NCBI GenBank assembly: GCA_030530605.1
Contig: JAUMUO010000004.1
Coordinates: forward strand, 14,631 to 78,630
Direction: 5' to 3'
Source of the DNA: Candidatus Saccharimonadota bacterium
Lineage (GTDB): Bacteria > Patescibacteriota > Saccharimonadia > Saccharimonadales > Saccharimonadaceae
Length of the DNA: 64,000 nucleotides
In this document: positions 5,302-45,770 of the stretch, piece by piece
How the letters are laid out: the number at the start of each line of letters is the position of its first letter
Position numbering within the stretch: position 1 is the stretch's first letter
Made by a program: the position numbers and the translations under genes
The notes under the pieces: generated by a model
What the model was told of the DNA's origin: nothing
Database searches by the model: none
Seen by the model: only the letters and a program-made list of their open reading frames with translations

Positions 5302-6678
5302 ATGTTTGTAGACGTAGCAAAAGTTGAACTCCACGCTGGCAAAGGCGGGGACGGGGCGGTTTCCTTCCGTCACGAAATCTATATTCCAAAGGGCGGTCCC
5401 GATGGTGGTGACGGCGGTAAAGGCGGCTCTATCATTTTTCGTGCCGACAAAGATACTAATACGCTCCTAGACTTTCGTTACAACCCAATTCTGCGCGCCG
5501 AGGATGGTAAAAATGGCTCCGGACAGCGTTCCGCCGGCCGTTCCGGCAAAGACCTGATTGTAGAAGTGCCGATTGGCACGGTGGTTAGAAGAGACGGAGA
5601 AGTAATTGCCGATTTAACCAAAGATCAGGAAGAGGCGGTAATCGCTAAAGGTGGCGACGGCGGTTTCGGCAATGCTCATTTTAAGTCATCAACGCGCCAG
5701 ACTCCTAAAATCGCGGAGGTCGGCGAGCCGGGTGAAGAATTTATCGCCGAGCTAGAATTAAAACTTTTGGCCGATGTTGGTTTGGTTGGCCTTCCGAATG
5801 CTGGCAAATCTACTTTTCTCGCCAGCGTCTCCAACGCCAAGCCCGAAATTGCTGATTACCCGTTTACCACCATCACTCCAAATCTCGGTGTTGCCACTAT
5901 CGACGGCAAGGATTTGTTAATCGCTGATATTCCGGGTCTCATTGAAGGTGCCGCCGAAGGCAAGGGTCTCGGCCACGCCTTTCTCCGCCATATTGACCGC
6001 ACCGCAGTTTTGTTACACCTTGTAGATGTTTATAATGACGACGCTGGCAAGGCCTATAAAACCATCCGTGATGAGCTTGCCAAATACTCAGATTTGAAAG
6101 ATCGCCCCGAAATCGTCGCGCTCACTAAATGCGAAGGCCTAGACCCAGAGATTATCGCGATGCAGACCGCGAACATCTTACGCGAGAATCCCGACGCTAA
6201 GGTCTTCGCCATCTCCGCCCCCGCCCACCAGGGAATCACAGAGCTGTTGCGGGAATTATGGGAATGTAAGATGAGCGTTCAGGAAGGCCTTGAGCGAACC
6301 CGATTTGAGGAAGATTCTTACAGAGACGAGCACGCGACGGTTCGCGACGCAGTCCCTGCTAAGAATCTGACGAAAATCGAACGTGATGCGAAACAGCCGA
6401 CTGAACGCTCGTCTGACATTCCTACCATCAAACTCTCTGACAAGGCCCTGAAGGATACCTGGTCGGTAGAGAAAGACGGCGATAAATTTGTCGTGACGGG
6501 CGAAAAAATCGAAAAGTTCGCCCGGAAAACCGATTTGTCTAATTATGCTTCCTTGAACCGCTTGCGCGATGTGATGAAGAAAATGGGCATCCGCGCCGAG
6601 CTCACCAACCAGGGCGCCGGTCCGGATAGTATCATTAGTATTGCTGGCAAAGAATTCACACTTGTAGAAGATTATTAA
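5302..6678 (+). CDS. obgE: GTPase ObgE/CgtA
   Basis: Gly-rich Obg fold (GKGGDG..GGPDGGDGG), GLPNAGKST, DYPFTT, DIPG, C-terminal CgtA-like domain. Confidence 0.97.
   Translation: MFVDVAKVELHAGKGGDGAVSFRHEIYIPKGGPDGGDGGKGGSIIFRADKDTNTLLDFRYNPILRAEDGKNGSGQRSAGRSGKDLIVEVPIGTVVRRDGEVIADLTKDQEEAVIAKGGDGGFGNAHFKSSTRQTPKIAEVGEPGEEFIAELELKLLADVGLVGLPNAGKSTFLASVSNAKPEIADYPFTTITPNLGVATIDGKDLLIADIPGLIEGAAEGKGLGHAFLRHIDRTAVLLHLVDVYNDDAGKAYKTIRDELAKYSDLKDRPEIVALTKCEGLDPEIIAMQTANILRENPDAKVFAISAPAHQGITELLRELWECKMSVQEGLERTRFEEDSYRDEHATVRDAVPAKNLTKIERDAKQPTERSSDIPTIKLSDKALKDTWSVEKDGDKFVVTGEKIEKFARKTDLSNYASLNRLRDVMKKMGIRAELTNQGAGPDSIISIAGKEFTLVEDY
6256..6422. repeat. Long palindromic segment inside obgE coding sequence
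   Basis: 6261-6282 and 6401-6422 are a 22-bp inverted repeat (20/22); inner stems 6301-06/6374-79, 6312-20/6360-68, 6333-37/6342-46. Confidence 0.8.
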
Positions 6679-6738
6679 GCTATAAACTACGCCAACTAAT
6701 AAATTGCTCTCTATGGTATAATATACCAAAGGAGTACT

Positions 6739-7199
6739 ATGGATAAAAATGTTAAAACCAGCATTGATGCGCGCAAAAATGCCATCACCAGCACTTATGC
6801 TTTAGAGAGGGAACTAAAAACCAAGTTTGACAACCTATTCAAAAAAATTGAGGACCTCGGAAGAACCGCCAAGGATTCCGCAGATTTTGAAGCCAAGTTT
6901 GCGAGCAGCCCTCTGAATCAGGAATATCTGGACCTCTTCACCGAAATCGCTACCAAAAACACCGCCACCGGCCTCAAGGGCGTGACCAATGCCTCTGGCA
7001 AATCAATGGGTGAAATGGTCGCCAAAGGCGTAATGGACCAGGCCGGCAGTCGTATTAAGCAGGCCGTGATGCCGACTCGCGCCCAAATCAACCAAGCCGC
7101 CTACGACAAGGCCCGCGACATCCCCGGCGTCGGCGACGCTATGGCCGTCAAGCAACACGTTGATTTCTTCTCTCGCTTCAAAAAGCAGAAAGACGAGTA

Positions 7200-7200
<1 letters not shown>
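6739..7200 (+). CDS. Hypothetical protein
   Basis: 153-aa ORF with TGG-TATAAT and AAAGGAG upstream; stop overlaps recG start (TAATG). Confidence 0.75.
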
Positions 7201-9254
<2,054 letters not shown>

Positions 9255-9272
9255 TTGTGCTATAATTAGACT

Positions 9273-11178: not shown

Positions 11179-11187
11179 GTAGGTTTT

Positions 11188-12054
11188 ATGTATTCTGCAG
11201 TAGGACTTCTTAAATACGCAAAAGGTTCGGGTGGGAAATTAGTTGGCACTCACCAGAAACTCGACAAGGCCGCTCGCCGGGCTTTTTCAAGCCTGATTAA
11301 GAAGAAGGCCTTTTTCCCGAATAGTAAAGAAATTATCCACTTTGAAGGTAGCCGCGGGCCGGATGGTCTGAAGCGCAAATCGCCTGGTGTGGACGAGCCG
11401 ATGCATTTTATTATGCCTGATAATGACGACGGTAAGCTTTGGCACTATATTGAAAACCACTCGGCCAACTTACGCAGAGTCTTAAAGGAAATTCAGGACA
11501 ATCCCGAAAAGGCTTACGACGAAGGCACGGATGTGCGCGCGGCCTTTGAGGCGGCTTGGTTGGCTCACGCCATTGTGGACGGCCTTACTCCGGCCCACCA
11601 TTTCCCCTATGAGGAAGCGGTTTCTGAATTGATGTCGGACAAAGATTACTTCCGGATTTTTGGTCAACCGATTAAAGGGATTATGCGCGGTGATAGTCTT
11701 GCCGAGTCCGCAGTTAAAAACTGGCGCTATTGGGGACACAATGGTTATATGAGCAAACATATCGCCTTTGAATATGGCGTGGCGCTCATCGTTACGGCCG
11801 AAGGTTGGGATGCCTTTTATCCAGAAATTTCCCCGAGCGATTTAGTAGATTTAGATTTTAAGACCGAATTTTATAATTCACTAAGGAAGATTCACTCGCT
11901 AGATATGTATACTCGGTTCCGCCAAGATGGTTGGACCTCGGCACTAGGTAAGGAAACCAAGAACATTTTGGTGCCAGAAATCGTTCGCGCCATTGTGTTG
12001 GGCTGGTATGCCTGTCTGCCTGAAGAATCTAAACGTAAAATTACAAAGGAATAG
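11188..12054 (+). CDS. Putative zinc-dependent PLC / S1-P1 nuclease-fold hydrolase
   Basis: Ligand order H (GTHQ), D (GPDG), H (PMHF), HAIVD-x5-H, HIAFE matches phospholipase C/P1 trinuclear zinc spacing; by eye. Confidence 0.55.
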   Translation: MYSAVGLLKYAKGSGGKLVGTHQKLDKAARRAFSSLIKKKAFFPNSKEIIHFEGSRGPDGLKRKSPGVDEPMHFIMPDNDDGKLWHYIENHSANLRRVLKEIQDNPEKAYDEGTDVRAAFEAAWLAHAIVDGLTPAHHFPYEEAVSELMSDKDYFRIFGQPIKGIMRGDSLAESAVKNWRYWGHNGYMSKHIAFEYGVALIVTAEGWDAFYPEISPSDLVDLDFKTEFYNSLRKIHSLDMYTRFRQDGWTSALGKETKNILVPEIVRAIVLGWYACLPEESKRKITKE

Positions 12055-12055
12055 T

Positions 12056-12544
12056 ATGGGTGAGCTCAGAATTTTATCAGGAAAATATAAAGGCACCAAA
12101 CTAGCCTCTCCTGGCGGGGCCACACATCCAATGGGTTCGCGCGAGAAACTAGCGCTGTTTAATATGCTTGCCCCTTATCTTGAAGGCGCTAGGGTTTTAG
12201 ATTATTTTGCCGGCTCCGGCGCTCTCGGCCTTGAGGCTCTCTCACGCGGCGCCGCCGAGGTGGTTTTCTGCGAAAACAACCGCAGGGCCCAAAAGGTCAT
12301 TGAAGATAACATACGGCAAATTGGTGACCGAGCCAATTTTGAAATTGAGGGGTTATTTAGTATTATAATCTCCGATCCACCCTACGATAACTATCAGGTT
12401 CCAGATTACGCCAGTTTGCTCGAAGACGGCGGGATTTTGGCCTTGTCCCATCCCAGTAATTTTGACCCTAAAACCATATCCGGCTTGACACTTCTAAAGA
12501 CTAATAGTTATGCTGCTTGTAATATCTCACTTTTTACAAAATAA
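12056..12544 (+). CDS. rsmD: 16S rRNA m2G966 methyltransferase RsmD family
   Basis: LRILSGKYKG..L, REKLALFN, LDYFAGSGALGLEALSRGA, DPPY; start at ATG 12056. Confidence 0.88.
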   Translation: MGELRILSGKYKGTKLASPGGATHPMGSREKLALFNMLAPYLEGARVLDYFAGSGALGLEALSRGAAEVVFCENNRRAQKVIEDNIRQIGDRANFEIEGLFSIIISDPPYDNYQVPDYASLLEDGGILALSHPSNFDPKTISGLTLLKTNSYAACNISLFTK

Positions 12545-12610
12545 CTCTTCCCAAAACAAAAGAACTATGGTATAATATACTCAAATTATAGAGTAATTGG
12601 AGTTCATATT

Positions 12611-13000: not shown

Positions 13001-13001
13001 G

Positions 13002-13030
13002 AAAAATCCAGCCGAAAGGCTGGATTTTTT
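13002..13030 (+). terminator. Intrinsic terminator
   Basis: AAAAATCCAGCC-GAAA-GGCTGGATTTTT. Confidence 0.85.
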
Positions 13031-19825: not shown

Positions 19826-20305
19826 ATGCCACGTAAAGTTACTAAATCTCTAACCAGAAAAGTTTCTCCAGATCGCAAATATCAGAGCGTTCTCGTTCAG
19901 AGACTTATCAATAAATCTATGCTAGACGGCAAAAAGCAGGCCGCCGAGCGTGCCGTTTACGCCGCTCTTGAAGGCGCTGCCAAGACTCTTAAGTCCGAAG
20001 ATCCAGTAGAGGTCTTTGAAAAAGCCCTTGCTAACGTTTCTCCGGATTTTGAGGTTAAATCTCGCCGTGTCGGTGGTGCTAACTACCAGATTCCATTTCC
20101 AATTTCTGGTCACCGCCAGCAGCACTTCGCTTTCTCTTGGCTAGTTCAGGCCGCTAGAGAGCGCAAGGGTATGCCATATAGCAAGCGTCTTGAGCTTGAA
20201 ATCGTTGATGCTTATAACGAAGCCGGTGCCGCCTTCAAGAAGAAGGAAGATTGTCACCGTATGGCCGAAGCGAACCGCGCCTTCGCACACTTCGCCCGCG
20301 CTTAA
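19826..20305 (+). CDS. rpsG: 30S ribosomal protein S7
   Basis: EVKSRRVGGANYQIP, HRMAEANRAFAHF. Confidence 0.98.
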   Translation: MPRKVTKSLTRKVSPDRKYQSVLVQRLINKSMLDGKKQAAERAVYAALEGAAKTLKSEDPVEVFEKALANVSPDFEVKSRRVGGANYQIPFPISGHRQQHFAFSWLVQAARERKGMPYSKRLELEIVDAYNEAGAAFKKKEDCHRMAEANRAFAHFARA

Positions 20306-27984: not shown

Positions 27985-28400
27985 ACGGTACGCTCGTAGC
28001 CCTCTTAATCGCTATCTTAATTGTAGGGATTTTGGCCTTTGTCGCTATCACTCTCACTCAAAATCGCAAGCACGGCTTTAATCGCGAAGATTACCAGGCG
28101 GAGTTTCTCTCTATCCAGACCAGTCTCAAAAAGGAATCTCCTGATTCCGCCAGCATGGTAATCGTTAAGGCGGATAAATTGTTAGACCAGGCTTTAATTG
28201 AAATCGGCCTTTCCGGCAAGACTATGGGCGAGCGTCTAAAGAAACTTCACGGTCGCCTCTCTGATGAGAACGGCGTCTGGGCCGCCCACAAGATGCGCAA
28301 CCGTATCGCCCACGAAACTAATTACGCCGCTTCCTACGAAGATGCCAAATACGCCCTCTCTGCCTATAAAACCGCATTAAAAGATTTAGGAGCCATATGA
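27981..28400 (+). CDS. Membrane-anchored protein with HEPN-like RxxxxH motif
   Basis: N-terminal TM; ADKLLDQAL..G..G.TMGERLK; RNRIAH at 28296-28313; ATGA overlaps with both gatA and gatB. Confidence 0.7.
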   Translation: MNGTLVALLIAILIVGILAFVAITLTQNRKHGFNREDYQAEFLSIQTSLKKESPDSASMVIVKADKLLDQALIEIGLSGKTMGERLKKLHGRLSDENGVWAAHKMRNRIAHETNYAASYEDAKYALSAYKTALKDLGAI

Positions 28401-29884
28401 AATACGAAATTACTATTGGCATTGAATGTCACGTCCAGCTAAAAACTAAAACCAAGCTCTTCTCCGAGGTTGATAATGATGCCCGAGAAAAAGAGCCGAA
28501 CTCCTGCGTCTCCCCGGTTGACTACGCGCTTCCTGGTGTGCTCCCGCGCCTCAATAAAGAGGCGGTTAGTCTCGCCGTCCGCGCCGGCTATGCTCTGAAT
28601 TCCGAAATTAATCTCTATTCCCGCTTCGATCGCAAACACTACTATTATCCAGATTTACCGAAAGGCTACCAGATTTCCCAGTTCTACCACCCGATTATCG
28701 GTGCCGGTTTTATTGAGCTACCAAACGGTACTAAGGTTCGCATTGAGCACGCTCATATGGAAGAAGATGCCGGCAAGCTTACCCACTTTAGCAATTATTC
28801 ACTAGTAGATTTGAACCGTGCTGGCACCCCGTTAATTGAAATTGTTTCTATGCCAGACATCCACTCTGCCACCGACGCCCGCGATTATTGTAAGGAACTC
28901 TGGCGAGCTATGACTTACGCCGGTGTCACCTATGGCGACCTTTATAATGGCAATATGCGTTTTGATGTCAACATCTCGCTCGCGCCAGAGGGAGCCAAGG
29001 AGCTTGGCCGTCGCGCCGAAATCAAGAACTTGAACTCCTTTAGAAGCGTTGAGCGCGCCGTGGAATATGAATATGAGCGCCAAAGTAAGATTTTAGACGC
29101 AGGCGAGCGAGTAAAGCAGGAAACTCGCGGGTGGAACGATGCCACCGGCAAGACCACTTCCCAGCGCTCTAAAGAGGAGGCCCAGGATTATCGCTATATG
29201 CCTGAGCCGGACATCCCACCGATTCGCCTAACCCCTGAATTTGTCAAGGAGGAACAAGCAAAAGTCGGCCTGCTCCCGCGTGATTACCGCAAGATGTTTA
29301 AGGGTATCATCCAAGACGATATTTTAGAAGTGCTATTAGATTATCAACCGCTTATGGACTGTTTATGGCAATGTGCTGGCGGCTCTTTCGAAGGGCCTAA
29401 GACTCGGCCGAGCGGCCCGGAGCGGCCCGAGAAAGAGTTGCCAGACATTGCCAAGAGCCATCTGAAGCGTATTGCTAACTGGTTCTCTAGTGTACTCCTA
29501 GCCGAAGAAAAATCCTACGAGATGCTAAATGATTTGCCGTCGTCAAAACAGTTGGACGATCTTGCCGAGATGACCGAAAAACAGGAGCTATCGAGTACCG
29601 GCGCTAAAGAGGTCTTTACGAAGCTCTTTGATCCCCAGATGAAAAATAAGGGGGCTAAAGATATCGCTAAAGAATTAAATGTTCTCCAGGAAAATGACAC
29701 GGGCGCACTTGAGAAAATCGTGGACGAGGTTTTGAGTGACCCGGCCTGCGCCAAAGCCGTTGCGGATTATAAAGCCGGCCAAGAAAAAGTTCTAGGTTTC
29801 TTAGTTGGTCAAGTGATGAAAGCCTCTAAAGGCAAAGCCAACCCTGGCGCCGCCCAGCAAATTCTGAAAAATAAGTTGAAATAA
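28397..29884 (+). CDS. gatB: Asp/Glu-tRNA amidotransferase subunit B
   Basis: GIECHVQL, RKHYYYPDLPKGYQISQ, HMEEDAGK, YRYMPEPD, GFLVGQVMK. Confidence 0.97.
   Translation: MKYEITIGIECHVQLKTKTKLFSEVDNDAREKEPNSCVSPVDYALPGVLPRLNKEAVSLAVRAGYALNSEINLYSRFDRKHYYYPDLPKGYQISQFYHPIIGAGFIELPNGTKVRIEHAHMEEDAGKLTHFSNYSLVDLNRAGTPLIEIVSMPDIHSATDARDYCKELWRAMTYAGVTYGDLYNGNMRFDVNISLAPEGAKELGRRAEIKNLNSFRSVERAVEYEYERQSKILDAGERVKQETRGWNDATGKTTSQRSKEEAQDYRYMPEPDIPPIRLTPEFVKEEQAKVGLLPRDYRKMFKGIIQDDILEVLLDYQPLMDCLWQCAGGSFEGPKTRPSGPERPEKELPDIAKSHLKRIANWFSSVLLAEEKSYEMLNDLPSSKQLDDLAEMTEKQELSSTGAKEVFTKLFDPQMKNKGAKDIAKELNVLQENDTGALEKIVDEVLSDPACAKAVADYKAGQEKVLGFLVGQVMKASKGKANPGAAQQILKNKLK
29363..29453. repeat. Palindromic segment inside gatB coding sequence
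   Basis: 29366-74/29445-53 (9 bp) plus 29376-89/29431-44 (14 bp, two G-T); inner GGGCC/GGCCC. Confidence 0.75.
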
Positions 29885-32448: not shown

Positions 32449-32598
32449 CGTCTAGATACCTTTTTTTATGCTGGAATAAAATAGCAAAAAGGGGTCGTAG
32501 TTTAACATGATAAGATAAGTTAGTTATAAGCCTAAGGAGGTGAAAAAGAGAAGGCTTAAGATTGTAACTCGTTGATTGTTTCAGAAGTGGAGGACGAT

Positions 32599-35500: not shown

Positions 35501-38500
35501 CGGCAGTTCCCGGCAAGACGGGTTATACTAATCTTGGCTGGTCCTTAGTAGATGGCAGTAACATCTACGAACCCGGCACTACTCTGGAGCTTTCGAATAT
35601 CGGCATCTCCAGCGCAGAGGATGAGCAAAACCTTGTCTTCGTTGCGGAGTACGAAACCATACCCTACACCATCACCCTTACCGGGTTAACGGGTGTAAGC
35701 GAGAATTCTATCGATGCGCTTGAAGACATTGGCTTCACCGTTGAAGATGGTACCGCTACTATCACCAAGACTATTGAGGATAGTCTTACTATTCCTGAAA
35801 TCAGCAAAGATGGCTTCCGCTTCATGAAGTGGGATGACAGCGACGCTGAAACTACGGATGGCAAGACTGTCGAATTAGCAGTAGGAGATATCGACGATGA
35901 TCTTAGCTATGCGGCTGTCTTTGAGCAGGAGTACACCTTGATCCTGGCTGGGTTAGAGGGTATCACTTCAGCCTCAGTTGCAGCTTTGGAAGACAAGTTT
36001 ACCGTTAACGACGATGGGACAGCCACGCTGATCTTTGTCGATGATGACGAAGCTTTTAATCTTCCGGCAGTAGCCAAGACCGACTATGATTTCCTTGGTT
36101 GGTACACTGGCGATGATCCTACCACTGCAACTTTAACTGTTAACTTCAATCCTAGCACCGCAGCAGACGCGACTTACACGGCAAGGTTCGTGAGGTCTTA
36201 CACCGTTACTTTCATGGACGGCACTACAGAGCTCGCTGATCTTGGCTTTACGTATCTGACGGGTGCTACGTCAATCACCATACCGGCAATTCCAGACAAG
36301 CTTGGTTACACTTCGGGCGAAGGCTGGTACCTGCAAGGTGACGAAACGGCAACACTTTATACTGCTGGTACTTTAACACTTGCGACCATCGGTATAGAGG
36401 ACGCTGACGACGAGACCAACTTGATCTTTGTCGCAGATGAGTATACTATCAACAACAACACTGTCACCCTCCTCGGGTTGGATGACATCAGTACAGCATC
36501 TGTTACCGCTCTTGAGTCCGCTGGATTCACCCTGAGCGAGAACAAAGCTACAGTCACCAAGACCGTTGAGGATAGCCTTACTATCCCGGCCATTTCTAAG
36601 CTTCACAAAGTATTTGATGGCTGGCAGAAGGGCACTGACGAACCGACCGCCACAGTCACACTGGCAGTTGGCGAAATCACAGGAAACTTAAGTTATACGG
36701 CTACGTTCTCTAGCGCAAAGACCATCACAGTTAGTTTCGACCTTGACGGCGGCGCCTTCCAGGCAGCTGACATAGAGGGTTGGGATGACTTTGGTTATGT
36801 TGTAGGAACGAACGAAGCTTTGGCAGCTTATGTCGACGACAATCTGGCTACTATCAACAACATTCCGGCACCAATTAAGGCAGACAATGTCTTTACAGGC
36901 TGGACCGTAAACGGTGGCACAGATAAGGTAATGAGTTACACCTTGCCCGCTCCTAATAACCAGGCAGTTGCACTCGTAGCTACTTGGATCGCAGGCGAAG
37001 AGGGCGAGACCATTATTCAGACAGAAGGTAACGCTGCTGGAAAGATCGATAACAGCTCTGTTAATGATATCAAGGATATTCTTGATGATAACGTTGGCAC
37101 TGGCGAAACTTCAGTAACAAAACTCTTCATCGAAGAGGACTTGACTGATACTCACGCTGGTACGGCCATCGAAGACAAGCTGGAAGAAGCTTTCGGCGGT
37201 ACAACTGCAAATATCACTAAGACTTACGTTGATATTGATATCACGCAGTATATCACTTCTGTTTCAAACAACAGCATTGCTAGTGAAATCCACGACCTCG
37301 GACGCGTTGTAGACATTATCTACACACCGACAAATGGCGTGGCTAATCTGAAGGCAGTAGTTCGCGAGCATGACGGTAACCCCAAGACCTACACAAGGTT
37401 TAAGGAACTTGCAACCGCACCGACCGGCGAGCTTGTAGATGGAACCTATTTTATTGACGACCCTGTCGTACATATTTACACCAGGTTCTTCTCAACCTAC
37501 GCTCTTGGTTATGCAACCGGAGTATACATGGTAAGCTTTGACGCTAACGGCGGTAACGAGACCTATGACCCTGTTTACACTGATCAGCTTGGCACATTGC
37601 CGACACCTACAAGGTCAGGCTATTGGAGCTTCCTGAAGTGGACCTATCCTGATGGAAGCGCGGCCGCAACTGGCGACACAATCACTCAAGATACTACGCT
37701 TACTGCTCAGTGGAAGGATACAACACCTCCCGGACCTGGGCCTGGACCTGGACCGAGTTCTTATACCGTCACCTTTGATTCAAATGGTGGTAAACCGGTT
37801 AGCTCGATCACGGTTACAGACGGTAAGTTGCCTGCTCTTCCGGAAACTACGAAAGAGAACAACACCTTCGACGGTTGGTTCTATGCAAATGGAACTAAGG
37901 CAGCAGTTGGTGATACAATCACAAGCGATGTCACTCTTACCGCTAGATGGACACAGAGTGGCACGTTCACTGTTTACTTTGATACTCAAGGTGGTACTGC
38001 AGTAGATCCTATTACTGTAACAGATGGCAAGCTTCCGACTCTCCCGACTACAACTAAGGAAGGTAACGCTTTCAACGGTTGGCTCTATGAGAACGGAAGC
38101 AAAGCAGTAGCTGGCGACGTAATTACTGGCAATGTTACCTTAACCGCAAGCTGGACACCTGGAGTAACGAATTACACTATCACCTTCGATGCTAACGGCG
38201 GTAGTGCTGTAGCTCCTATGACTGTTTCAGACAACAAACTCCCGAAACTGCCTGACAGTACGAGGGAGAAGTACACTCTTGACGGCTGGTTCTACGCAGA
38301 TGGTACCAAGGCAGCAGCTGGTGATGTCATCAAGGCAGACACCACCTTGACTGCAAGATGGACCAAGGTTAAAGAACCCGCTCCGACAGAGGTCGTCCCG
38401 ACCAAGAATGGTGTAGTAGTAGCAAAGAACAACGATGGTAAAAACACCGTTACACTGCTCGATGGTACTAACTACGGCAAGAAAGCTTCTATCAACACTA

Positions 38501-39903
38501 TCAAGGGAACGGACAAGAAGACCTACAAGATTACCAGAATCTACGATGAAGCCTTTAAGGGCAATACTACTATCACTAACGTATCCATCGGCTCTAACGT
38601 ACTGTTTATCGGCGACAGCGCTTTTGACGGCTGTACTAACCTGAAATCGGTATCGTTTGGTAGCAAGGTGAAAGAAATTGGTGATAGAGCCTTTGCTGGT
38701 ACAGCAATCACTAAGGCTAATGTCTCTGGTAAAGTAGAAACTATCGGCAGCTATGCTTTTGCTGGCTGTACCTACCTGAAATCTGCGTCTATCGCAGGTA
38801 AAGTCAACTCAATTGGCGAATCAGCTTTCGACGGCTGTACTGCTCTTGCTACAGTGAAGATCGGAAATACGGTGAAGACCGTTAGCGCTAGAGCGTTTGA
38901 CGGCTGTACAGGTCTGAAGACGTTAAATATCGGATCTGGAGTAGAGGTTATCGGAGTTGGCGCCTTTAGCGGATGTAGTAATTTGGCTACGCTTACTATT
39001 GGTATGTCGAATATCCCTGATGGGCTGTTTAGCGGATATGCTAACCTTAAGAAAGTAACTATTGGCAAAACTGTTAAGTCTATCGGCGAATCTGCATTTG
39101 CTAGCACTGGAATTACCAGAATCAGCTTATCTGGTAAGTTAGAGTCTATCGGCGATTATGCATTCTATAATTGCCAGAGTCTTACTTCATCAAGTATGAG
39201 CAAGTATGTTAAATCTGTTGGCGCTTGCGCATTCCAGAATTGTTCGAGCATGAAGACCGCTTCTCTCGGCTCTAATGTTGAGACTGTTGGCGATTATGCT
39301 TACGCTGGTTGTGCTAGCCTGAAGTCATTCAAGGTTGGCAAGACAGTTAAGACTATGGGTATTGAAGTACTCGACGGCTGTACCAACCTGGCCACTCTTA
39401 CCATAGACATGGCAAATATCCCTGATAATTTACTCAAGGGTAGCACCAGTCTTAAGAAGGTGAGTATTGGCTCCAACGCCAGAACGGTTGGCGACAGCGC
39501 ATTTAACGGCTGTACTAACCTCAAGACATTGACTCTGGGCGGCAAGTTAGTTGGCATCGGCGACTACGCCTTTGCTGGTACCGCTATCACCAAGGCTACT
39601 ACAAGTAAGACAGTTACAACTATCGGCAACTACGCCTTTGCAAACTGTGCTAACCTGAAGTCGGCTACGATCGGCGCAGGAGTGACCTACATTGGTGCTG
39701 GCGCTTACTCAGGCGACGCTAACCTTGCTACTCTTACAGTTAATTCAAGCAACTTAACTACTACAGAGGCTGTAGGCAATGATTTCATCAGCGGAATCAA
39801 AGCTAACGCGACTGTGAAGATACCTAAGAAGGTATTCGACCAGACCAAGAGCGTCTTTGAGGCCAAAGGTGGTGCCGGCAGTCAGATCAAGTACAAGAAG
39901 TGA
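32599..39903 (+). CDS. Giant secreted surface protein: InlB B-repeat (Flg_new)-like domains + C-terminal BspA-type LRRs
   Basis: GGAGG SD before ATG 32599, signal peptide; many Y(T/S)VTF..GG..LP.P.K.GY.F.GW modules; PPGPGPGPGPS linker; C-terminal IG..AF.GC..LK.V.IG repeats (LRR_5-like). Confidence 0.88.
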   Translation: MKKMNRTLQKYLAVILSVMVAVCSTPTVTYAQLAETDTVTIAFNTGEDAGYVTTPDGYDYDGEGAPGIYSKSFTETSEGETVTLLDAPDDIPLGKVFVKWESEDGADCEPGDVMALSTLDVDDGDTYTFTAVYADIYSIEYDVNGGNDPATANPTSWNVTDGDILLNNPSYTDDIYTFNGWWLADDTEFEEGQEITSAITTLNSTLFDAISGSSIKLVADWYPTDFTVALYGLNGVSSDSISALENLGFDMDDEDAPTTATASLTVEDAITIPALEKEGYRFVKWDDGNDSTDDGTTIELAAGDIRSGLDFTATFEQEHTLTLSGLANIDDGSVAALEGLGFTVGSSTATKVFTASDTAFDLPNVESDSYEFFGWYTDDPTSASKDVEFDPGVDTDTTYTARFANSYSVTFMDGTTELDTLGFMYQTDETSIRLPALPDKDYYSGEGWVIVGDETETVYTSDADLDLETIGIEDEDDYTNLVFDASYTATPFTITLTGLSGVSENSIAELEDIGFTMDDEDAPTSATVTKTVEDALTIPAIVKDGYRFIKWDDSDSGTVDGRAVDFEVGEITDNFEFAATFEQEYTLTLNGVAGITAGSVADLEEKGFTVSGNTAALVFIDDDEEFVIPNVAKEGYDFFGWYAGDDPTSAALDLTFDPSTAADASYTASLIRSYTVTFMDGMTELTSLGFTYLTGADSINLPALADKDGYTSDGWVLQGDETATEREAGATLSLADIGIEDEEDETDLVFVAKYSTIPYTITLSGLDNADSDSITALEAVGFTLSDNNVEATAVKTVEDAVTIPAMSGTGFRFLGWQKDGTGTDFLDEVVLEEGDILSDLNYTAVLKQEYTLSLTRLGGITDSTVEALEADGFTISNGTATKKFINTDSVVVLPTVAKANYDFLGWYASGQSETTASTNVTFDPSEEQNGRYVARFVRSYTVTFMDGTTELTDLGFTYLTGAESINLPAVPGKTGYTNLGWSLVDGSNIYEPGTTLELSNIGISSAEDEQNLVFVAEYETIPYTITLTGLTGVSENSIDALEDIGFTVEDGTATITKTIEDSLTIPEISKDGFRFMKWDDSDAETTDGKTVELAVGDIDDDLSYAAVFEQEYTLILAGLEGITSASVAALEDKFTVNDDGTATLIFVDDDEAFNLPAVAKTDYDFLGWYTGDDPTTATLTVNFNPSTAADATYTARFVRSYTVTFMDGTTELADLGFTYLTGATSITIPAIPDKLGYTSGEGWYLQGDETATLYTAGTLTLATIGIEDADDETNLIFVADEYTINNNTVTLLGLDDISTASVTALESAGFTLSENKATVTKTVEDSLTIPAISKLHKVFDGWQKGTDEPTATVTLAVGEITGNLSYTATFSSAKTITVSFDLDGGAFQAADIEGWDDFGYVVGTNEALAAYVDDNLATINNIPAPIKADNVFTGWTVNGGTDKVMSYTLPAPNNQAVALVATWIAGEEGETIIQTEGNAAGKIDNSSVNDIKDILDDNVGTGETSVTKLFIEEDLTDTHAGTAIEDKLEEAFGGTTANITKTYVDIDITQYITSVSNNSIASEIHDLGRVVDIIYTPTNGVANLKAVVREHDGNPKTYTRFKELATAPTGELVDGTYFIDDPVVHIYTRFFSTYALGYATGVYMVSFDANGGNETYDPVYTDQLGTLPTPTRSGYWSFLKWTYPDGSAAATGDTITQDTTLTAQWKDTTPPGPGPGPGPSSYTVTFDSNGGKPVSSITVTDGKLPALPETTKENNTFDGWFYANGTKAAVGDTITSDVTLTARWTQSGTFTVYFDTQGGTAVDPITVTDGKLPTLPTTTKEGNAFNGWLYENGSKAVAGDVITGNVTLTASWTPGVTNYTITFDANGGSAVAPMTVSDNKLPKLPDSTREKYTLDGWFYADGTKAAAGDVIKADTTLTARWTKVKEPAPTEVVPTKNGVVVAKNNDGKNTVTLLDGTNYGKKASINTIKGTDKKTYKITRIYDEAFKGNTTITNVSIGSNVLFIGDSAFDGCTNLKSVSFGSKVKEIGDRAFAGTAITKANVSGKVETIGSYAFAGCTYLKSASIAGKVNSIGESAFDGCTALATVKIGNTVKTVSARAFDGCTGLKTLNIGSGVEVIGVGAFSGCSNLATLTIGMSNIPDGLFSGYANLKKVTIGKTVKSIGESAFASTGITRISLSGKLESIGDYAFYNCQSLTSSSMSKYVKSVGACAFQNCSSMKTASLGSNVETVGDYAYAGCASLKSFKVGKTVKTMGIEVLDGCTNLATLTIDMANIPDNLLKGSTSLKKVSIGSNARTVGDSAFNGCTNLKTLTLGGKLVGIGDYAFAGTAITKATTSKTVTTIGNYAFANCANLKSATIGAGVTYIGAGAYSGDANLATLTVNSSNLTTTEAVGNDFISGIKANATVKIPKKVFDQTKSVFEAKGGAGSQIKYKK
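33271..36715 (+). repeat. Internal tandem repeat: about four ~795-bp three-domain units plus a partial fifth
   Basis: Units begin near 33271, 34070, 34870, 35661, 36457 (ITL.GL...SI.ALE..GF / QEYTL.L.GL / SYTVTFMDGTTEL); boundaries approximate. Confidence 0.8.
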
Positions 39904-39927
39904 TTTTAATTAACTTATCTTATCGGG

Positions 39928-39958
39928 AGGGGTCCTTGCTCTTTAAGGGCCCCTTTTT
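39928..39958 (+). terminator. Intrinsic terminator after giant gene
   Basis: AGGGGTCCTT...AAGGGCCCCT followed by T-run. Confidence 0.75.
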
Positions 39959-40081
39959 CATGGTAAAAATTAAGCGATTTTCCTCTTTACAACCCCCCAA
40001 AAATCATGTAAAATAGTAGTAAGTGTCTGGAGATGGTTTTTATTAGTGCTACCAGACAATTAATAAAAGGAGAATAAAAGA

Positions 40082-41266
40082 ATGGCAAATTTTGACCGTT
40101 CCAAGCCACACATTAACGTTGGCACCATGGGTCACGTCGACCATGGTAAAACCACTCTTACCGCTGCTATTACTGCGGTTCTAGCAAAAAAGCTTCCTAG
40201 CGAAGTTAACAAGCCGGTCGCTTACGACCAAATCGACAACGCCCCTGAAGAGAAGGCTCGCGGTATTACTATCGCTACTTCCCACCAGGAATACGAGTCT
40301 GAAAAGCGTCACTATGCCCACGTCGATATGCCGGGCCACGCTGACTACATTAAGAACATGATTACCGGTGCTGCCCAGATCGATGGCGCTATCCTCGTCG
40401 TCGCTGCGAACGATGGTCCGCTTCCGCAGACCCGTGAGCACGTACTTCTCGCCCACCAGGTGAACGTTCCAAAAATCATCGTCTTCTTGAACAAGATGGA
40501 TCTCGCTGACCCAGAGCTCGTCGAGCTCGTTGAGATGGATGTCCGCGAACTCTTGAACAAGTACGGCTTCGATGGCGACAACGCCCCAATCATCAAGGGT
40601 TCCGCTACCAAAGCTCTCGAAGGTGATGCTGAAAACGAACAGGCTATTATGGACCTCGTTAAGGCTATGGACGAATACTTTGATGTTCCAGAGCACGATC
40701 TTGACAAACCATTCCTAATGCCAATTGAAGACGTCTTCTCTATCAAAGGCCGTGGTACTGTTGCTACTGGTCGTATCGAGCAGGGTGTCGTCAAATTGAA
40801 CGACGAAGTTGAAATCGTCGGTCTTAAGGACACTCAGAAGTCCGTCGTTACCGGTATCGAGGCCTTCCACAAGACTCTTGATCAGGGTCAGGCTGGCGAT
40901 AACGCAGGTCTTCTTCTCCGCGGTATCGAGCGCGATCAAATCGAGCGTGGTCAGGTTATCGCTGCCCCAGGTAGCATTACCCCACACACCGAGTTTGAAG
41001 GTGAAGTTTACATCTTGAAGAAAGAGGAAGGCGGCCGCCACACCCCGTTCTCCAAGGGTTACAAGCCACAGTTCTACTTCAGAACTACCGACGTTACCGG
41101 CGAAGTTGAGCTTCCAGCTGACAAGGAAATCGTTATGCCTGGTGACACCGTCACTTTCAAGGTTAAACTCCTTGCCCCAATCGCTATGAACAACAACGAC
41201 CGCTTTGCTATCCGTGAAGGTGGCAAGACCGTTGGTTCTGGTGTTATCACCAAGATTGTAAAATAG
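40082..41266 (+). CDS. tuf: Elongation factor Tu
   Basis: [29 protein letters not shown]. Confidence 0.99.
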
Positions 41267-41271
41267 CAATT

Positions 41272-41303
41272 AAAAAAAGAGCCGTTTACAAGCGGCTCTT
41301 TTT
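41272..41303 (+). terminator. Intrinsic terminator after tuf
   Basis: AAAAAAAGAGCCG-TTTACAAG-CGGCTCTTTTT. Confidence 0.85.
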
Positions 41304-41387
41304 GGTGTATAATATACACTGTTATAAATTAATATCAGGCTAGAAAAACTCCATTCTTTCGAGGTTATCTAGCGAGAAAGGAATTAA

Positions 41388-41711
41388 ATGGCAGAAGCCA
41401 AAAAAGAAGGTTTAAAAATCCGTATCCGCCTCAAGGCCTATGACCACCGCGTCATCGACCAGAGCGCTAAGCAAATTGTTGACACCGCCATCAGAACTGG
41501 TGCCAATGTCAGCGGCCCAGTGCCTCTTCCGACCAAAAGAAGCACCTTTACCGTAGTCAAGAGCCCACACGTCTATAAGACCGGTGGTGAGGCTTTCGAG
41601 ATGAAGGTTCACAAGCGCCTGATTGACATCACCAATGCCACCCCAAAGACGATCGATTCACTTCAGAATCTCTCGCTCCCAGCTGGCGTTGATGCTGAAA
41701 TCCGTATGTAG
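41388..41711 (+). CDS. rpsJ: 30S ribosomal protein S10
   Basis: [33 protein letters not shown]. Confidence 0.98.
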
Positions 41712-41739
41712 AAAAAAGCCCCCATTTAGGGGGCTTTTT
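41712..41739 (+). terminator. Intrinsic terminator after rpsJ
   Basis: AAAAAAGCCCCC-ATTTA-GGGGGCTTTTT. Confidence 0.85.
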
Positions 41740-41952
41740 GTTGCCTTTGTGCAAAATGAAAAGCGCCAGTCCTAAGACTGGCGCAGTTCTTCAGCCGGGT
41801 CACTTCCGGTTCTTCAAACCAGTCGCTATCCTTCCAATTCGGGTAAAGCCCATCGAGCTTAGCTCTGAACTGGTGGTTTATAATTGAAGCTATACTGCAT
41901 TGTCCCTAAAATGTCAAGGTGACAAACCCGTAGGATTTGATATAATAGATGT

Positions 41953-43245
41953 ATGCGTATTACCGCAAAATTTAAGAAGAAATTTTACTTCGTAGCTGCA
42001 GGGTATTTTCGCTTTTTTGCAAATCACGCTCTGAAGCGTTGGCACCCCCGTATTATCGCTATCACCGGCTCTGTCGGTAAAACTACGATGCTACACCTAG
42101 TAGAGACCCAGCTAAAAGACGAAGCGCACTATTCCCACGATGCGAACTCGGCCTTTGGTATCGCTTTTGACCTCGTGGATCTCCGAGGCGTCACCGGTTC
42201 TAAAGCCCGCTGGTTTTACCTGATTTTTGCCGTCCCCGTTAAATCGCTTTTTGTAAAGCATAAAGAGAAGTTTTATATTGTTGAGATTGATGGTGAGCGC
42301 CCCCACGAAACCGAATTCTTGGCTACCTGGCTAAAGCCCGAGATTACCCTTTGGGTCTCTCTCGGCCGCTCTCACGCCGTCCAATACGAGCAGCAGATTA
42401 GAGATGGTATCTTTGAGAACCTCGATAAAGCCATCACCCACGAGTTTGCCACTCTCCCGGAGAACACCAGAAAAGTCATCTATATCGACGGTGATGTTCC
42501 TCTAATGGTCAAAGCCACCGAAAAGATTCTCAAAAAAGGCAAAACAAAGGCCGATGTCATCAGATATTACAAAAAAGACCTCAAAAAATACGATGTCACC
42601 CCTGATAGCACCACCTTTGAATTAAAAAGCGGCCTAAAATTCAAGTTCGCTCAACCGATGCCAAAAGACATGGCTATCCAGCTTTTAATGCTAGAAGGCC
42701 TAATGGACTATCTTAAAATTAAGATTAACACCAACCTCACCAACATGGTGGTTGCCCCCGGTAGAAGCAGCTTCTTCGAGGGTAAAAACGGCCTTAAAAT
42801 TATTGATAGCTCCTATAATGCCCACCTTATCTCCGTCCAATCTATTCTTGAAATGAGCAAGGAGATGCCAGAGAAGAAAAAGTGGTACATCATCGGTGAT
42901 ATGGTAGAACAGGGCTTTATTGAGGGTGATGAGCACGCTAAGCTAGCGGATTTAATTGCTGACGCCAAGCCTACCAAGGTTCTCCTGGTTGGCCGCCGCA
43001 CCAAGAAATACACCTACCCAAGATTAAAGGAACTAAAAGTAGACGCAGAGACTTTCTCAGATGTCAGGCCGGCCCTGAAGTATATTGAACAAAATACCAA
43101 AGGCGACGAGGTTCTGATTTTCAAAGGTTCGCAATATCTAGAGTGGATTATTGAGAAATTATTAAAAAATCCCGCGGATGCCGAGAAATTGCCCCGTCGG
43201 GAGAAAGCAGCCACCAAGCGTCGCGAAAAAAGAGGGTTAAATTAA
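41953..43245 (+). CDS. Mur ligase family protein (MurF-like)
   Basis: IIAITGSVGKTT, IIDSSYNA, IGDMVEQG, FKGSQ. Confidence 0.85.
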   Translation: MRITAKFKKKFYFVAAGYFRFFANHALKRWHPRIIAITGSVGKTTMLHLVETQLKDEAHYSHDANSAFGIAFDLVDLRGVTGSKARWFYLIFAVPVKSLFVKHKEKFYIVEIDGERPHETEFLATWLKPEITLWVSLGRSHAVQYEQQIRDGIFENLDKAITHEFATLPENTRKVIYIDGDVPLMVKATEKILKKGKTKADVIRYYKKDLKKYDVTPDSTTFELKSGLKFKFAQPMPKDMAIQLLMLEGLMDYLKIKINTNLTNMVVAPGRSSFFEGKNGLKIIDSSYNAHLISVQSILEMSKEMPEKKKWYIIGDMVEQGFIEGDEHAKLADLIADAKPTKVLLVGRRTKKYTYPRLKELKVDAETFSDVRPALKYIEQNTKGDEVLIFKGSQYLEWIIEKLLKNPADAEKLPRREKAATKRREKRGLN

Positions 43246-43253
43246 GGAGGAAT

Positions 43254-43979
43254 ATGACCACGATTTATGTTATTCACGGCTGGACTTACACTGTAGAGCC
43301 CTGGAAGCGCACCATTGCCGAGCTAAAGGAAAAGGGTATAAAGATACAGATGTTAAATGTCCCTGGTCTTACCGCGCCTTCTAACAAGGTCTGGACGATA
43401 GAGGATTATGTCAAATGGGCAGACCGCAACATCCCTAAAGATGCCATTGTCTTAGGCCATAGTAACGGGGGTCGTATCCTTCTAAACCTCCTCTCTGAAA
43501 AGCCAGGCAAGGTTAAACACCTTATCTTGGTGGATGCCGCCGGCGTATACGAAGAAAGCAAGAAAAGGGACCTCAACCGTAAGGCCTCTAAAGTGTTCGC
43601 CCCCCTTAAAAAGGTCAAGCCTCTCCGGAAAGTCTATCATAAACTACTTGGGGCCTCTGATTACGACCGTGCCCCTGAGAATATGAAGCAAACCCTTTCA
43701 AATATGCTTGATTCCGACAAAAAATTAGATATTTCCAAGGTTACCACTCCTACTACTATCCTCTGGGGCCAAAAAGATACTACCACCCCGCCCCGCCAGG
43801 CCGAAAAGATGCACGAGCTTCTGCCAAACTCCACTTTAGATTTTTATGCCAACTGGAATCACGCCCCCTATATTTCGGATCCAGCCGGTTTTGCCAGGGC
43901 TATCGCGAAAACCGTCAAAAGTGTCACCAATGTCGACCCAAGCCGCTCGCTCGCCTCTAAAACTAAGGGGGTAATTTAG
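43254..43979 (+). CDS. Alpha/beta hydrolase
   Basis: IHGW, GHSNGG nucleophile elbow, WGQKD, NHAP. Confidence 0.9.
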   Translation: MTTIYVIHGWTYTVEPWKRTIAELKEKGIKIQMLNVPGLTAPSNKVWTIEDYVKWADRNIPKDAIVLGHSNGGRILLNLLSEKPGKVKHLILVDAAGVYEESKKRDLNRKASKVFAPLKKVKPLRKVYHKLLGASDYDRAPENMKQTLSNMLDSDKKLDISKVTTPTTILWGQKDTTTPPRQAEKMHELLPNSTLDFYANWNHAPYISDPAGFARAIAKTVKSVTNVDPSRSLASKTKGVI

Positions 43980-45770
43980 GTGTATTTCCTCGGTCAGGCC
44001 TCCACATACAAGTTTACAGATGTCATAAGGCATACTTTTTCATTTGGTACAAAAAGTAATCTCAACGAACTTCGGGCCTACCTCGCCGCTCACTACGGCA
44101 CCACTAAAGACCGAGTAGCAGTTTATCACAGCGGCCGTACCGGCCTAGCTATCGCCTTGGATCGCCTCGTCCCTAAAGAATCAGAGGTCATTGTCACCGC
44201 TTTAACCTGTTACGCTGTTTATGAAGCTGTCTCCGAGGCCGGCTGTATTCCAGCTTTTGCCGATATAGATAAAGACACTATCCATTTCGGTCCAAAAGAG
44301 TTGAAAACCGCTCTCGCTTTGCACCCAGACGCAAGAGCCGTAGTCGTTCAGAATAATCTCGGTATCCCTTGTGATATCAGAGGTATTGAAAAAATCTGTA
44401 AGAAATATGGCCTAGTTTTGATAGAAGATTTGGCACATTCCATGGGGATTCATTATAAAGACGGCCGTGAAGCTGGCACCATCGGAGATGCCGTAGTTCT
44501 ATCTTTTGGTAAAGGTAAAGCCATTGATACCATCTCTGGTGGCGCGGTAATTTTCACTAGTCCAGATTCTCCAACTATTTCCCAACCTTCCCGCCGCCCG
44601 CGCCTCTCGGACCGCCTCAGAGACCGCTGGTATCCGTTTTTTGGCCTTTTAATTCGCGGCTTCTATCATATTGGAAATCTTGGCCGTCTCTTCACCAGCT
44701 TTCTCTTGAAAATCCACTTTATCCAGCGTTCCGCCGATGCCGAGCTAGAACCTCTGGACCGCATCACCTTCTGGCAAGCCAAATTGGCCCTAAAACAGAT
44801 TAAAAAGATTCCTCGCTCCGGCAGAAAGCCGATTCGTGAGCCGTTCTTTGTGGATGATAGAGAATATTTACTGAAAGAATTAGAGCGAGGAGGCTTCGTC
44901 TTTGATGATATCTGGTACAGTTGCCCGGTTTCCCCTATTAGATACTACCGCCGGGTAAATTTCCCAGAAGAGGAGTGCCCGATGGCAATTTGGGCTGCCG
45001 AGCACCTAATAAATCTCCCCACCTGGTATTCTAAAAAAGATTTGAAGCCAGCTAGGAAGCTAATTGAGCGCTATATTGTAAAAGAGGAGGATATGCCGGA
45101 TCTCTCTTTGAAACTTACCCCAGAGGCCCCTGTAAAGGCCCCAAAAGAGCCATCTAAAAAACCCGTCAACATCTCCAAAGAACCTAAAAAGACCCCGCGA
45201 AAAGCTTCTGCTGCTCGCACCCCTGTAAAGTCCGATCTAGACTTCGCCCTCGCCGAACTCCAAGTCATGCCGGAAGAAGAGCTTTATGCCGAAGACGAGG
45301 AAGATGAGTATGATGATTATTATGGGCAGGCTGGTGACCTTCGCCGGGCTGTTGAAGGGTGGTCCGAAAATGGGGTCCCCCCTGAAGAAGCTTTTTCCGA
45401 AGGAAAAAGTTCTTTAGGGGTAAATTTTCGGGACAGGACCGTCCAAAGCCAGTGGCTTTGGACGGAAAGGCAAACTCGTGCGCGAATGCGCACGAGGAAA
45501 CTTACCCCGAAACACCCGCGCGGAACGAGCCAGTCTGCTATTCAAGCAGGGGACATCAATTATTCTGAAGTAGTCTATGACAAACTGAATAAAAAGCACT
45601 TAAACCGCACTAATATCATTGACAAAAATACCAACTCTGATGGCACTTCCGTTACCTTGACCAGGGAAGAACGTTTCCCAAAGAAACCCACCACCGACAA
45701 TCTCCCCAAAATCCGTCAATATAAGAAGCCTGAAAAAGGCCCAGAAACCACCGAGGGCAAAGTATGGTAA
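43980..45770 (+). CDS. DegT/DnrJ/EryC1/StrS aminotransferase family protein with ~230-aa C-terminal extension
   Basis: SGRTGL, IEDLAHS, LSFGKGKAID..GG; family domain ends near residue 365. Confidence 0.82.
   Translation: MYFLGQASTYKFTDVIRHTFSFGTKSNLNELRAYLAAHYGTTKDRVAVYHSGRTGLAIALDRLVPKESEVIVTALTCYAVYEAVSEAGCIPAFADIDKDTIHFGPKELKTALALHPDARAVVVQNNLGIPCDIRGIEKICKKYGLVLIEDLAHSMGIHYKDGREAGTIGDAVVLSFGKGKAIDTISGGAVIFTSPDSPTISQPSRRPRLSDRLRDRWYPFFGLLIRGFYHIGNLGRLFTSFLLKIHFIQRSADAELEPLDRITFWQAKLALKQIKKIPRSGRKPIREPFFVDDREYLLKELERGGFVFDDIWYSCPVSPIRYYRRVNFPEEECPMAIWAAEHLINLPTWYSKKDLKPARKLIERYIVKEEDMPDLSLKLTPEAPVKAPKEPSKKPVNISKEPKKTPRKASAARTPVKSDLDFALAELQVMPEEELYAEDEEDEYDDYYGQAGDLRRAVEGWSENGVPPEEAFSEGKSSLGVNFRDRTVQSQWLWTERQTRARMRTRKLTPKHPRGTSQSAIQAGDINYSEVVYDKLNKKHLNRTNIIDKNTNSDGTSVTLTREERFPKKPTTDNLPKIRQYKKPEKGPETTEGKVW
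45320..45557. repeat. Multi-hairpin palindromic segment inside the DegT-like gene
   Basis: Perfect stems 45439-50/45454-65 (12 bp), 45475-83/45488-96 (9 bp), 45391-98/45402-09 (8 bp), 45417-23/45502-08; closing stem 45325-35/45529-39. Confidence 0.85.

Follow-up and report, generated by a model that had tools for sequence, protein, structure and literature searches.

A 64-kb stretch of a gene-dense Saccharibacteria contig, referred to here as the window, carries three strongly self-complementary DNA segments inside the genes obg, gatB and a DegT-like aminotransferase gene. These segments are probably copies of palindromic DNA repeat elements that populate the Saccharibacteria of ruminant guts and survive almost only where they lie in frame in tolerant loops and linkers. 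We observed that such elements are dispersed, are present in some genomes and absent from others, invert their interiors, are built in layers with host-templated arms, and keep open frames. The nearest homologs of the window Obg, GatB and DegT-like proteins are from ‘Candidatus Saccharibacteria’ and ‘Ca. Nanosyncoccus’ metagenome-assembled genomes (MAGs) of ruminant guts. The comparison set consisted of 80 species-level obg neighbourhoods of ruminant-gut Saccharibacteria (1.5 Mb) and 14 metagenome contigs. The neighbourhoods were scanned for local folds, and all candidates were then compared with all loci. All sequence came from metagenome assemblies, and independent assemblies concur. Below, L with a number denotes a relative's locus or contig and X a metagenome run; L085 (GCA_045652995.1) is a 98% identical relative. 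The host genes and elements of the window, all on the + strand, are as follows.

5302..6678, +: obg host gene (GTPase ObgE; Pfam GTP1_OBG 3-155, MMR_HSR1 158-276, DUF1967 389-452)
6256..6422, +: obg palindromic element, arms 6261-6282 / 6401-6422; peptide LWECKMSVQEGLERT...TERSSDI
28397..29884, +: gatB host gene (495 aa; Pfam GatB_N 6-283, GatB_Yqey 355-494)
29363..29452, +: gatB palindromic element, lineage-specific outer arms 29367-29381 / 29440-29452
29382..29439, +: gatB conserved core, peptide FEGPKTRPSGPERPEK; member of a dispersed family of ~89 nt
43980..45770, +: DegT/DnrJ-like aminotransferase host gene (Pfam PF01041 26-196 and homolog alignment)
45325..45540, +: composite element in the DegT linker, an outer stem around three inner hairpins
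45438..45503, +: nested 66-nt insertion in the DegT element, two perfect small hairpins with a flanking 3-nt direct repeat ACC

The first-pass annotation of this DNA had described the three segments as GC-rich and strongly self-complementary. The self-complementarity was borne out: the RNA minimum free energy (MFE) was −71.9 kcal/mol for obg 6256-6420 (z −7.2), −47.7 kcal/mol for gatB 29363-29449 (z −5.7) and −119.6 kcal/mol for DegT-like 45320-45557 (z −7.8), and dinucleotide shuffles never matched the native stability (0/200 for each hairpin). All three hairpins also beat a codon-shuffle control in which synonymous codons were resampled from the window's own usage with the peptide fixed (z −7.3 for obg, −5.0 for gatB and −6.0 for DegT-like; 0/300 resamplings reached the native energy). 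GC enrichment was only moderate, at 0.51-0.61 compared to 0.47 for the window. In sliding and local-fold scans the three hairpins were the top three local folds of the 64 kb. Four other folds were considered and set aside as elements: 8070-8154 lies within recG, is matched in relatives at the orthologous recG position and was read as conserved gene sequence; 41241-41316 and 41680-41830 are intergenic, terminator-like hairpins; and 20213-20295 falls in the conserved 3' end of an open reading frame (ORF) taken, from its translation alone, as ribosomal protein S7.

The segments had been placed where homologs have a short linker or have ended. We found them in short variable loops or linkers, but the DegT-like homologs do not end there; a C-terminal domain of ~100 aa continues. 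Homolog alignment confirmed length-variable, lineage-specific sites, but the indels are not clean, as the gatB loop is replaced and the obg linker is replaced entirely. The obg element starts at the end of the G domain (…ELLREL, where alignment to solved Obg structures also stops, at residue 319) and extends to the conserved D-[LI]-P-[VT]-I-K-L with which the C-terminal domain begins. Its inverted repeat (I1) has 22-nt arms that are 91% complementary. Both the length and the sequence of this linker vary extremely among 120 close homologs; Obg proteins without an insertion (424-431 aa) have a K/E-rich linker of ~25 aa, which is wholly lost from the window protein. GatB homologs have a modal length of 468 aa and read …PLMEKLSEV-KDVKRIANWF. 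The window GatB has 27 additional residues at the sole internal variable site, where 30 of the 121 homologs have at least 6 extra residues. The empty allele in L086 reads PLMEKLAEV-KDVKRIANWF, and at the DNA level 108 nt stand in place of its ~27-nt ancestral loop. The net insert relative to the empty allele is +81 nt for gatB; it is ~+93 nt for obg, and the polymorphic sub-element of DegT measures 66 nt. The DegT-like protein comprises an aminotransferase domain (~370 aa), a variable acidic linker with the element, and the conserved C-terminal domain. This last domain (window 45550-45770, residues ~525-596, INYSEVVYD…HLNRTNIIDKN.NSDGT…NLPKIRQYKKPEKGPETTEGKVW) has no Pfam match; it is fused to the aminotransferase in the window's clade and missing from homologs of 368-370 aa.

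The same annotation had joined the three segments into one family by common ends, TTATGG...GACAT[TC] with an in-frame Asp-Ile. The left ends of the obg and gatB elements are indeed alike. TTATGGSAATGT (TTATGG[GC]AATGT) occurs exactly twice in the window, at both hairpin starts, and is unlikely to do so by chance. It is not a genome-wide motif, as a scan allowing up to 2 mismatches returned 12 matches where 8.8 were expected. The remaining ends did not hold up. TTATGG of the DegT-like gene is only six letters long, falls on host Tyr-Tyr-Gly codons and matches no better than chance would. Its GACATC sits beyond the DegT hairpin (45325-45540), at a distance of 12 nt, and belongs to the host's conserved G-[DST]-I-N-Y-S-E motif, and GACATT of obg encodes the host Asp-Ile of D-[LI]-P-[VT]-I, which Obg proteins without an insertion also have. 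The obg left arm GGAATGT is the reverse complement of this host GACATT region. Because the right ends of obg and DegT are host codons, the third match is at chance level and the interiors are unrelated (the annotation had already noted that they differ), the three window elements belong to different families. One might speculate that the outer layer of gatB was copied from the obg locus.

Evidence for dispersal came from the relatives. Palindromic families with elements of 60-250 nt are scattered through the ruminant-gut genomes, and nearly all copies retain an open frame. A single element can be found in several genes and either orientation, with as many as four copies within 21 kb. We observed insertions in Obg, GatB, DegT-like, TrmD, RluB-like, RsmD, AlaRS, YchF, UvrD, MiaA, Tgt and aminoacyl-tRNA synthetases, and the multi-copy sequence families were F1, F2, F3, F11 and the gatB core. 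Stretches of 87-116 nt are 92-96% identical between different genes of one genome. F1 (~110 nt) has four copies within 21 kb of L046, two in obg, one in TrmD and one in AlaRS; the two obg copies lie in opposite orientation and are 95.7% identical, and other species carry F1 in the Obg linker too. For F2 the hosts are Obg, TrmD and an RluB-like pseudouridine synthase, and copies run both ways, encoding …SAAARDLAPAARGDGPAGRG… in one and …SRPAGPSPRAAGANSRAAALRN… in the other. All strong F1 and F2 copies lie within ORFs (36/36). Further family links connect Obg with an unknown 567-aa protein, and RsmD of L003 with TrmD of L084.

Two of these loci deserve separate description. In L003, a hairpin element of ~190-240 nt (17044-17283, −121.6 kcal/mol) lies within an RsmD-like methyltransferase; neither L001 nor the window ortholog (11993-12544) has it. 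Here too the GACATT at the right end encodes a host Asp-Ile, of the conserved …IIISDPPYD motif, and 76 nt of the element are 88% identical to the element in TrmD of L084. In L046 (10410-10480), a 39-nt stretch (GACGGATATTCTCG.G.CCTTTTAGCCGAC) is tandemly duplicated directly after an F1 copy in obg, giving DGYSRVLLADPTRDGYSRALLADL. This duplication is direct and spans the F1 right arm and host flank.

The gatB core of the window belongs to such a dispersed family. It matched the family model at nhmmer E 1.4e-15 (model positions 15-72 of 89), with the window arms being its own, and a copy in TrmD of L058 shares 94% identity with it. The family occupies 8 different genes, and nine copies have a common consensus of ~89 nt, GGGTGGCCRAAAT…ATTYGGMCAGGACCC. 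Its YchF host was confirmed by Pfam; other hosts, named from their translations, we take to be MiaA, UvrD/PcrA, CysRS, an IleRS-like synthetase and Tgt. Another six or so are situated in intergenic or short-ORF DNA. Searching metagenomes with a 29-nt pattern of the core yielded 14 contigs. In metagenome contigs on gatB, depth rose 4-6-fold over 29395-29427, and several different sequences continued from the edges at 29383 and 29432-29437. The gatB-core pattern had no match in viral contigs (0 matches), giving no sign of a phage vector.

The loops that receive elements recur between species. At the Obg beta-turn VV[KR][KR]|DG, 17 of 77 species have at least 6 extra residues; the Obg linker is a second hot spot, and the TrmD loop before HYIILCPHYEG, with inserts in many of 53 species, is a third. 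As an unbiased test, we took conserved proteins and folded their lineage-specific inserts of 18 aa or longer (n = 116). Values of z < −3 were found in 27.6% and of z < −5 in 17%, compared to z < −3 in 0/116 control segments of the same length.

Presence/absence polymorphism was clearest in the DegT linker. L085 carries the DegT element except for 66 nt, and this insertion is the sole indel in 14 kb of 98% identical DNA between L085 and the window. Contigs from X1 and X9 skip exactly 45438-45503 (66 nt, with a 3-nt ambiguity ACC…ACC), and an X26 contig skips 70 nt at the sub-element with GGGG between. The stretch 45464-45506 was found again with other flanks in X1, X2, X9 and X26, and the element interior at 45337-45440 lies on higher-depth unitigs in X2. 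BLAST of the DegT element against the 1.5 Mb of related loci gave no relatives. A small hairpin of the 45464-45506 region, CTCGTGCGCGAATGCGCACGAG, recurs with its flanks at other loci. One X9 contig has two copies of it 66 nt apart with another perfect hairpin (ATAAACTTCCTGTGGAAGTTTAT) between, and its partner hairpins have a common loop CC[AT]GTGG and differing complementary stems; tandem arrays may exist.

At the other two sites, relatives differed in the apex (gatB) or in the orientation of the interior (obg). In P0123/L087 the gatB arms are as in the window and the apex is different. Homologs of the obg element lie at the same site in the same orientation in L003 and L005, and with the interior inverted in L001 and L008. 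The elements of L001 and L003, of equal length at the same site, are 85.9% identical over 163 nt on opposite strands, and both orientations are open frames. BLAST of the obg element against the 1.5 Mb of related loci returned orthologous obg-site copies only.

Across copies the elements are built in layers. The apex or core is conserved; around it lie complementary arms that differ from copy to copy and in many cases reproduce the neighbouring host codons. Flanks just outside the conserved envelope were more complementary than mismatched flank pairs for the gatB family (P = 3.8e-4, Mann-Whitney) and F2 (P = 3e-3), with P = 0.06 for F1. In the YchF, UvrD and TrmD copies one arm consists of host codons (LRELASEGG, RLWNLLGGGG and AREMSG, respectively) and the other arm is their reverse complement. 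The TrmD codons look conserved in the TrmD alignment; those of YchF and UvrD presumably are as well, judging from E. coli and B. subtilis sequences. At the Obg sites, stems extend 10-16 nt into host codons conserved in 77/77 species, sometimes upstream and sometimes downstream. Full-length copies of the gatB family have recognisable imperfect terminal inverted repeats (GGGTGGCC...CAGGACCC), and many copies are truncated symmetrically and have other arms (model positions 15-72, 15-71, 10-71, 6-75 and 4-75 of 89).

We also analysed covariation in the gatB family. Standard pairs made up 94.6% of pair cells, and double-sided changes occurred in 17 of 30 pairs, above the 8.7 ± 1.6 of shuffles (0/500) and the at most 7 obtained with slid partners. 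In all, 48 cells had double changes, and one-sided changes of the G-U type were rare. This pattern fits homogenisation of the arms at the DNA level better than selection on RNA.

Because the frames are intact in essential genes, we infer that the inserts are translated. The elements would be read through, adding 20-80 residues rich in Arg, Ser, Gly, Pro, Ala and Glu to housekeeping proteins, with predicted junction peptides such as LWECKMSVQEGLER and SFEGPKTRPSGPERPEK. The copied unit is probably a DNA stem-loop. New copies and new outer layers would arise by template switching during replication, through snap-back on the nascent strand or mediated by microhomology, with no cut-and-paste transposase. 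Template switching could leave a 3-nt repeat such as that at the fresh 66-nt insertion. Recombination between the arms would invert the interior. Selection would keep in-frame, stop-free copies in permissive loops and remove those that break frame or fold, which could explain both the hot spots in exposed loops and the ‘replacement’ of unconstrained linker. A wider claim, which we regard as doubtful, is that this is transposase-independent, structure-defined mobile DNA: template switching would both carry copies of a stem-loop to other loci and enlarge them where they stand. It would leave an inverted rather than direct duplication of the target flank and nested ‘onion’ palindromes that flip, shed and regain apices in essential genes, continuously creating new peptide loops in the minimal proteomes of the Candidate Phyla Radiation (CPR).

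Several observations weigh against the reading of the segments as mobile, translated repeats, or against its proposed mechanism. Metatranscriptome X25 gave only one 48-nt match, at <90%. The obg element is single-copy throughout the data, with no second copy, and the putative mobility of the window copy is argued from analogy and the hot spot. Some lineage-specific inserts are not hairpins. F1 is open in 5/6 frames, yet one frame is read per orientation, a pattern based on too few independent events to be interpreted. The position of the host-derived arm changes between copies, being either upstream or downstream, and so gives no polarity in favour of a particular replication model. We had considered that it is always downstream and dropped this: at the Obg linker 18 copies pair more with host codons upstream and 17 with those downstream, and at Obg site 1 the numbers are 10 and 6. 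The proposed template-switch mechanism is read from sequence signatures, and a trans-acting transposase may be encoded elsewhere in the genome, the scan having covered window ORFs and the relatives' loci.

Such a hidden transposase is the main rival explanation. The elements would then be non-autonomous transposons of the miniature inverted-repeat transposable element (MITE), REPIN or PATE type, moved by an enzyme encoded elsewhere, with arms that reflect subfamily divergence and nested insertion. It would account for multi-copy dispersal in both orientations and for presence/absence polymorphism; the imperfect terminal inverted repeats of the full-length gatB-family element (GGGTGGCC...CAGGACCC) and the ACC repeat around the recent 66-nt insertion are as expected, and the nested hot-spot pattern fits insertion into pre-existing hairpins. 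We nevertheless consider it unlikely. Among the window ORFs scanned none had a transposase Pfam domain, in agreement with the first-pass annotation, and the Pfam records for ~80 kb of relatives' loci list none either. Flanks of F1, F2 and gatB-family copies have no consistent direct target duplication or target motif and are instead inverted repeats. The ends do not look fixed, with symmetric and variable truncations, and arms complementary to conserved host codons cannot have come with the element. Movement might also be denied altogether, with fast-mutating linkers forming hairpins de novo by local template switching and coming to resemble each other by convergence. The single-copy obg element, the arms that copy neighbouring host sequence, and small inner hairpins that are perfect palindromes, as for fresh inverted duplications, all suit this account, which is very improbable and already contradicted for F1, F2 and the gatB core by the 87-116-nt stretches of 92-96% identity across genes of one genome, by an 89-nt consensus common to 8 unrelated genes, and by repeat-type depth spikes with differing flanks in metagenomes.

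We give hardly any credence to a functional RNA or an intervening sequence that is removed or bypassed at the RNA or translation level, whether intron-like, processed by RNase III or ‘byp’-like, even though the structure is strong and conserved with covariation and the window has an RNase III gene. Copies in essential genes are all open-framed and stop-free in either orientation, which a removed sequence would not need to be. One and the same element is found either way round and outside coding DNA as well, size and sequence are free to vary, and covariation proceeds without G-U intermediates. Rfam at the gathering threshold matched only a tRNA in the window and no family at the elements. Pfam found no intein or LAGLIDADG domain in the Obg, GatB and DegT-like proteins, and the 87-nt size excludes group I/II introns. 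The probability that the palindromes are assembly or amplification artefacts of MAGs is negligible. Short-read assemblers do often break at hairpin edges (runs X1 and X3), but the same elements appear with ordinary substitution patterns in independent assemblies and pipelines (ENA, NCBI MAGs and Logan) and in frame in hundreds of homologs, and an independent metagenome contig from run X7 spans the obg element.

Among known systems, the likeness to Rickettsia palindromic elements (RPEs) proposed in the first-pass annotation stood up. RPEs (RPE-1 to RPE-10) are palindromic families of ~100-150 bp in a small-genome, host-dependent bacterium, with many in-frame insertions in unrelated housekeeping ORFs, and the elements described here likewise form dispersed families of in-frame palindromic repeats in housekeeping genes. 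Both add peptide at fold-compatible positions, and no transposase was identified here; RPEs, which Ogata et al. (2000/2002) and Claverie & Ogata (2003) treated, are likewise not known to have a mobilising enzyme. Several RPE families of ~150 bp lie in frame in unrelated metabolic genes (PMC10969869), and RPEs lose repeat identity with time (PMC6649704). The elements of this study differ in belonging to another phylum (Patescibacteria/Saccharibacteria) and appear unrelated in sequence. They have, on the Saccharibacteria side, layered, host-templated and copy-specific arms, both orientations at one site, interior flips, recurrent hot-spot loops, and nested sub-elements that are polymorphic between 98% identical genomes. 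Given the other phylum, we consider RPEs the closest analogue and do not count the elements as RPE members.

Bacterial MITEs (Correia/CREE, ERIC, BOX and RUP) and repetitive extragenic palindromic (REP)/REPIN elements with REP-associated tyrosine transposases (RAYTs) are similarly short, hairpin-forming, multi-copy and of non-coding size. Most of their copies lie between genes, bounded by defined terminal inverted repeats and direct target duplications, and they have an insertion sequence or RAYT as partner, whereas copies here are mostly intragenic, with variable, symmetric boundaries, and no consistent target duplication or partner enzyme was found for them. Specifically, REP/REPIN elements are extragenic, with a REP of 20-40 nt and a RAYT; the elements here are 60-250 nt, F1 and F2 are intragenic in 36/36 copies, and no RAYT was seen in the sequence examined. 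The fixed-length target-site duplication of MITEs was not observed either, the only candidate being ACC at the 66-nt insertion.

Short GC-rich hairpins that break the frame and are skipped by the ribosome occur in coding regions as the ‘byp’ elements of Magnusiomyces mitochondria and in the T4 gene 60 bypass. Copies here preserve the frame instead, which makes read-through the simplest reading. Mitochondrial genes of Nematomorpha contain long coding inverted repeats with translated arms, dynamic gain and loss, concerted arms and a proposed template-switch origin (PMC6649704). Both arms lie in coding sequence in the two systems, and arms appear homogenised at the DNA level here too. The Nematomorpha palindromes are perfect, lie in conserved gene parts and are not described as dispersed families, whereas here repeat families are common to several genes and lie in variable loops. 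PARCELs (palindromic amphipathic repeat coding elements) are described as palindromic, intragenic tandem repeats giving surface variability (PMC2996958). They resemble the present elements as palindromic repeats coding in either orientation in small-genome bacteria, and differ in that they are not described as single insertions into enzymes. Full-text searching of the literature returned no paper connecting Saccharibacteria, Patescibacteria or CPR with such elements.

Other features of the window and its relatives were recorded alongside. The RNase III gene (window 58722-59522; Ribonucleas_3_3 and dsrm) encodes an enzyme for which the long, near-perfect mRNA hairpins of obg, gatB and DegT would be plausible substrates; the elements might in this way reduce or regulate expression of their host genes. 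In the window (6739-7200) and L003 (11401-11862), a 153-aa ORF that matches no Pfam family separates obg from recG. It is missing in L001 (11377-11402), though the L001 Obg is 90% identical to that of the window, a presence/absence polymorphism of a small gene. In L004 (11081-13122) recG is two ORFs (74 + 545 aa), compared to an intact 683-aa ORF in the near-identical L003 (11901-13952). The split may reflect a frameshift, a sequencing error or a pseudogene, and no strong hairpin was seen at the break. A giant 2443-aa ORF (window 32572-39903), for whose L085 ortholog no Pfam match is recorded, has diverged internal repeats of ~0.9 kb (34075-35015 and 35668-36593, 69% identical; also 33427-34048 and 35806-36430). 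In the gap between rpsJ and the Mur ligase (L085 7017-7974; window 41711-41953), L085 has an additional 543 + 170 nt that encode a membrane-like 236-aa ORF on the minus strand, and the window retains a 105-nt remnant with terminator-like hairpins at 41713-41740 and 41758-41789. We considered this ORF as a mobilising gene and rejected it, as it has no Pfam match and resembles a membrane protein.

CPR bacteria, Saccharibacteria among them, are seen as extremely streamlined. Core translation-related genes of the Saccharibacteria (Obg, GatB, TrmD, aminoacyl-tRNA synthetases, YchF, Tgt and MiaA) are repeatedly invaded by what would be translated selfish palindromes. This would make a second case of the Rickettsia phenomenon, independent of the first and in a different host-dependent lineage. 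With many species and natural empty and filled alleles at hand, movement of such elements becomes testable. Inverted flank copies, symmetric truncations and Watson-Crick-only covariation point to a DNA-hairpin and template-switch route over classical transposition. In practice, the elements break short-read assemblies and inflate and de-align the marker proteins used in MAG phylogenomics. They may also serve as strain-level markers, and may be a source of new surface loops in essential proteins.

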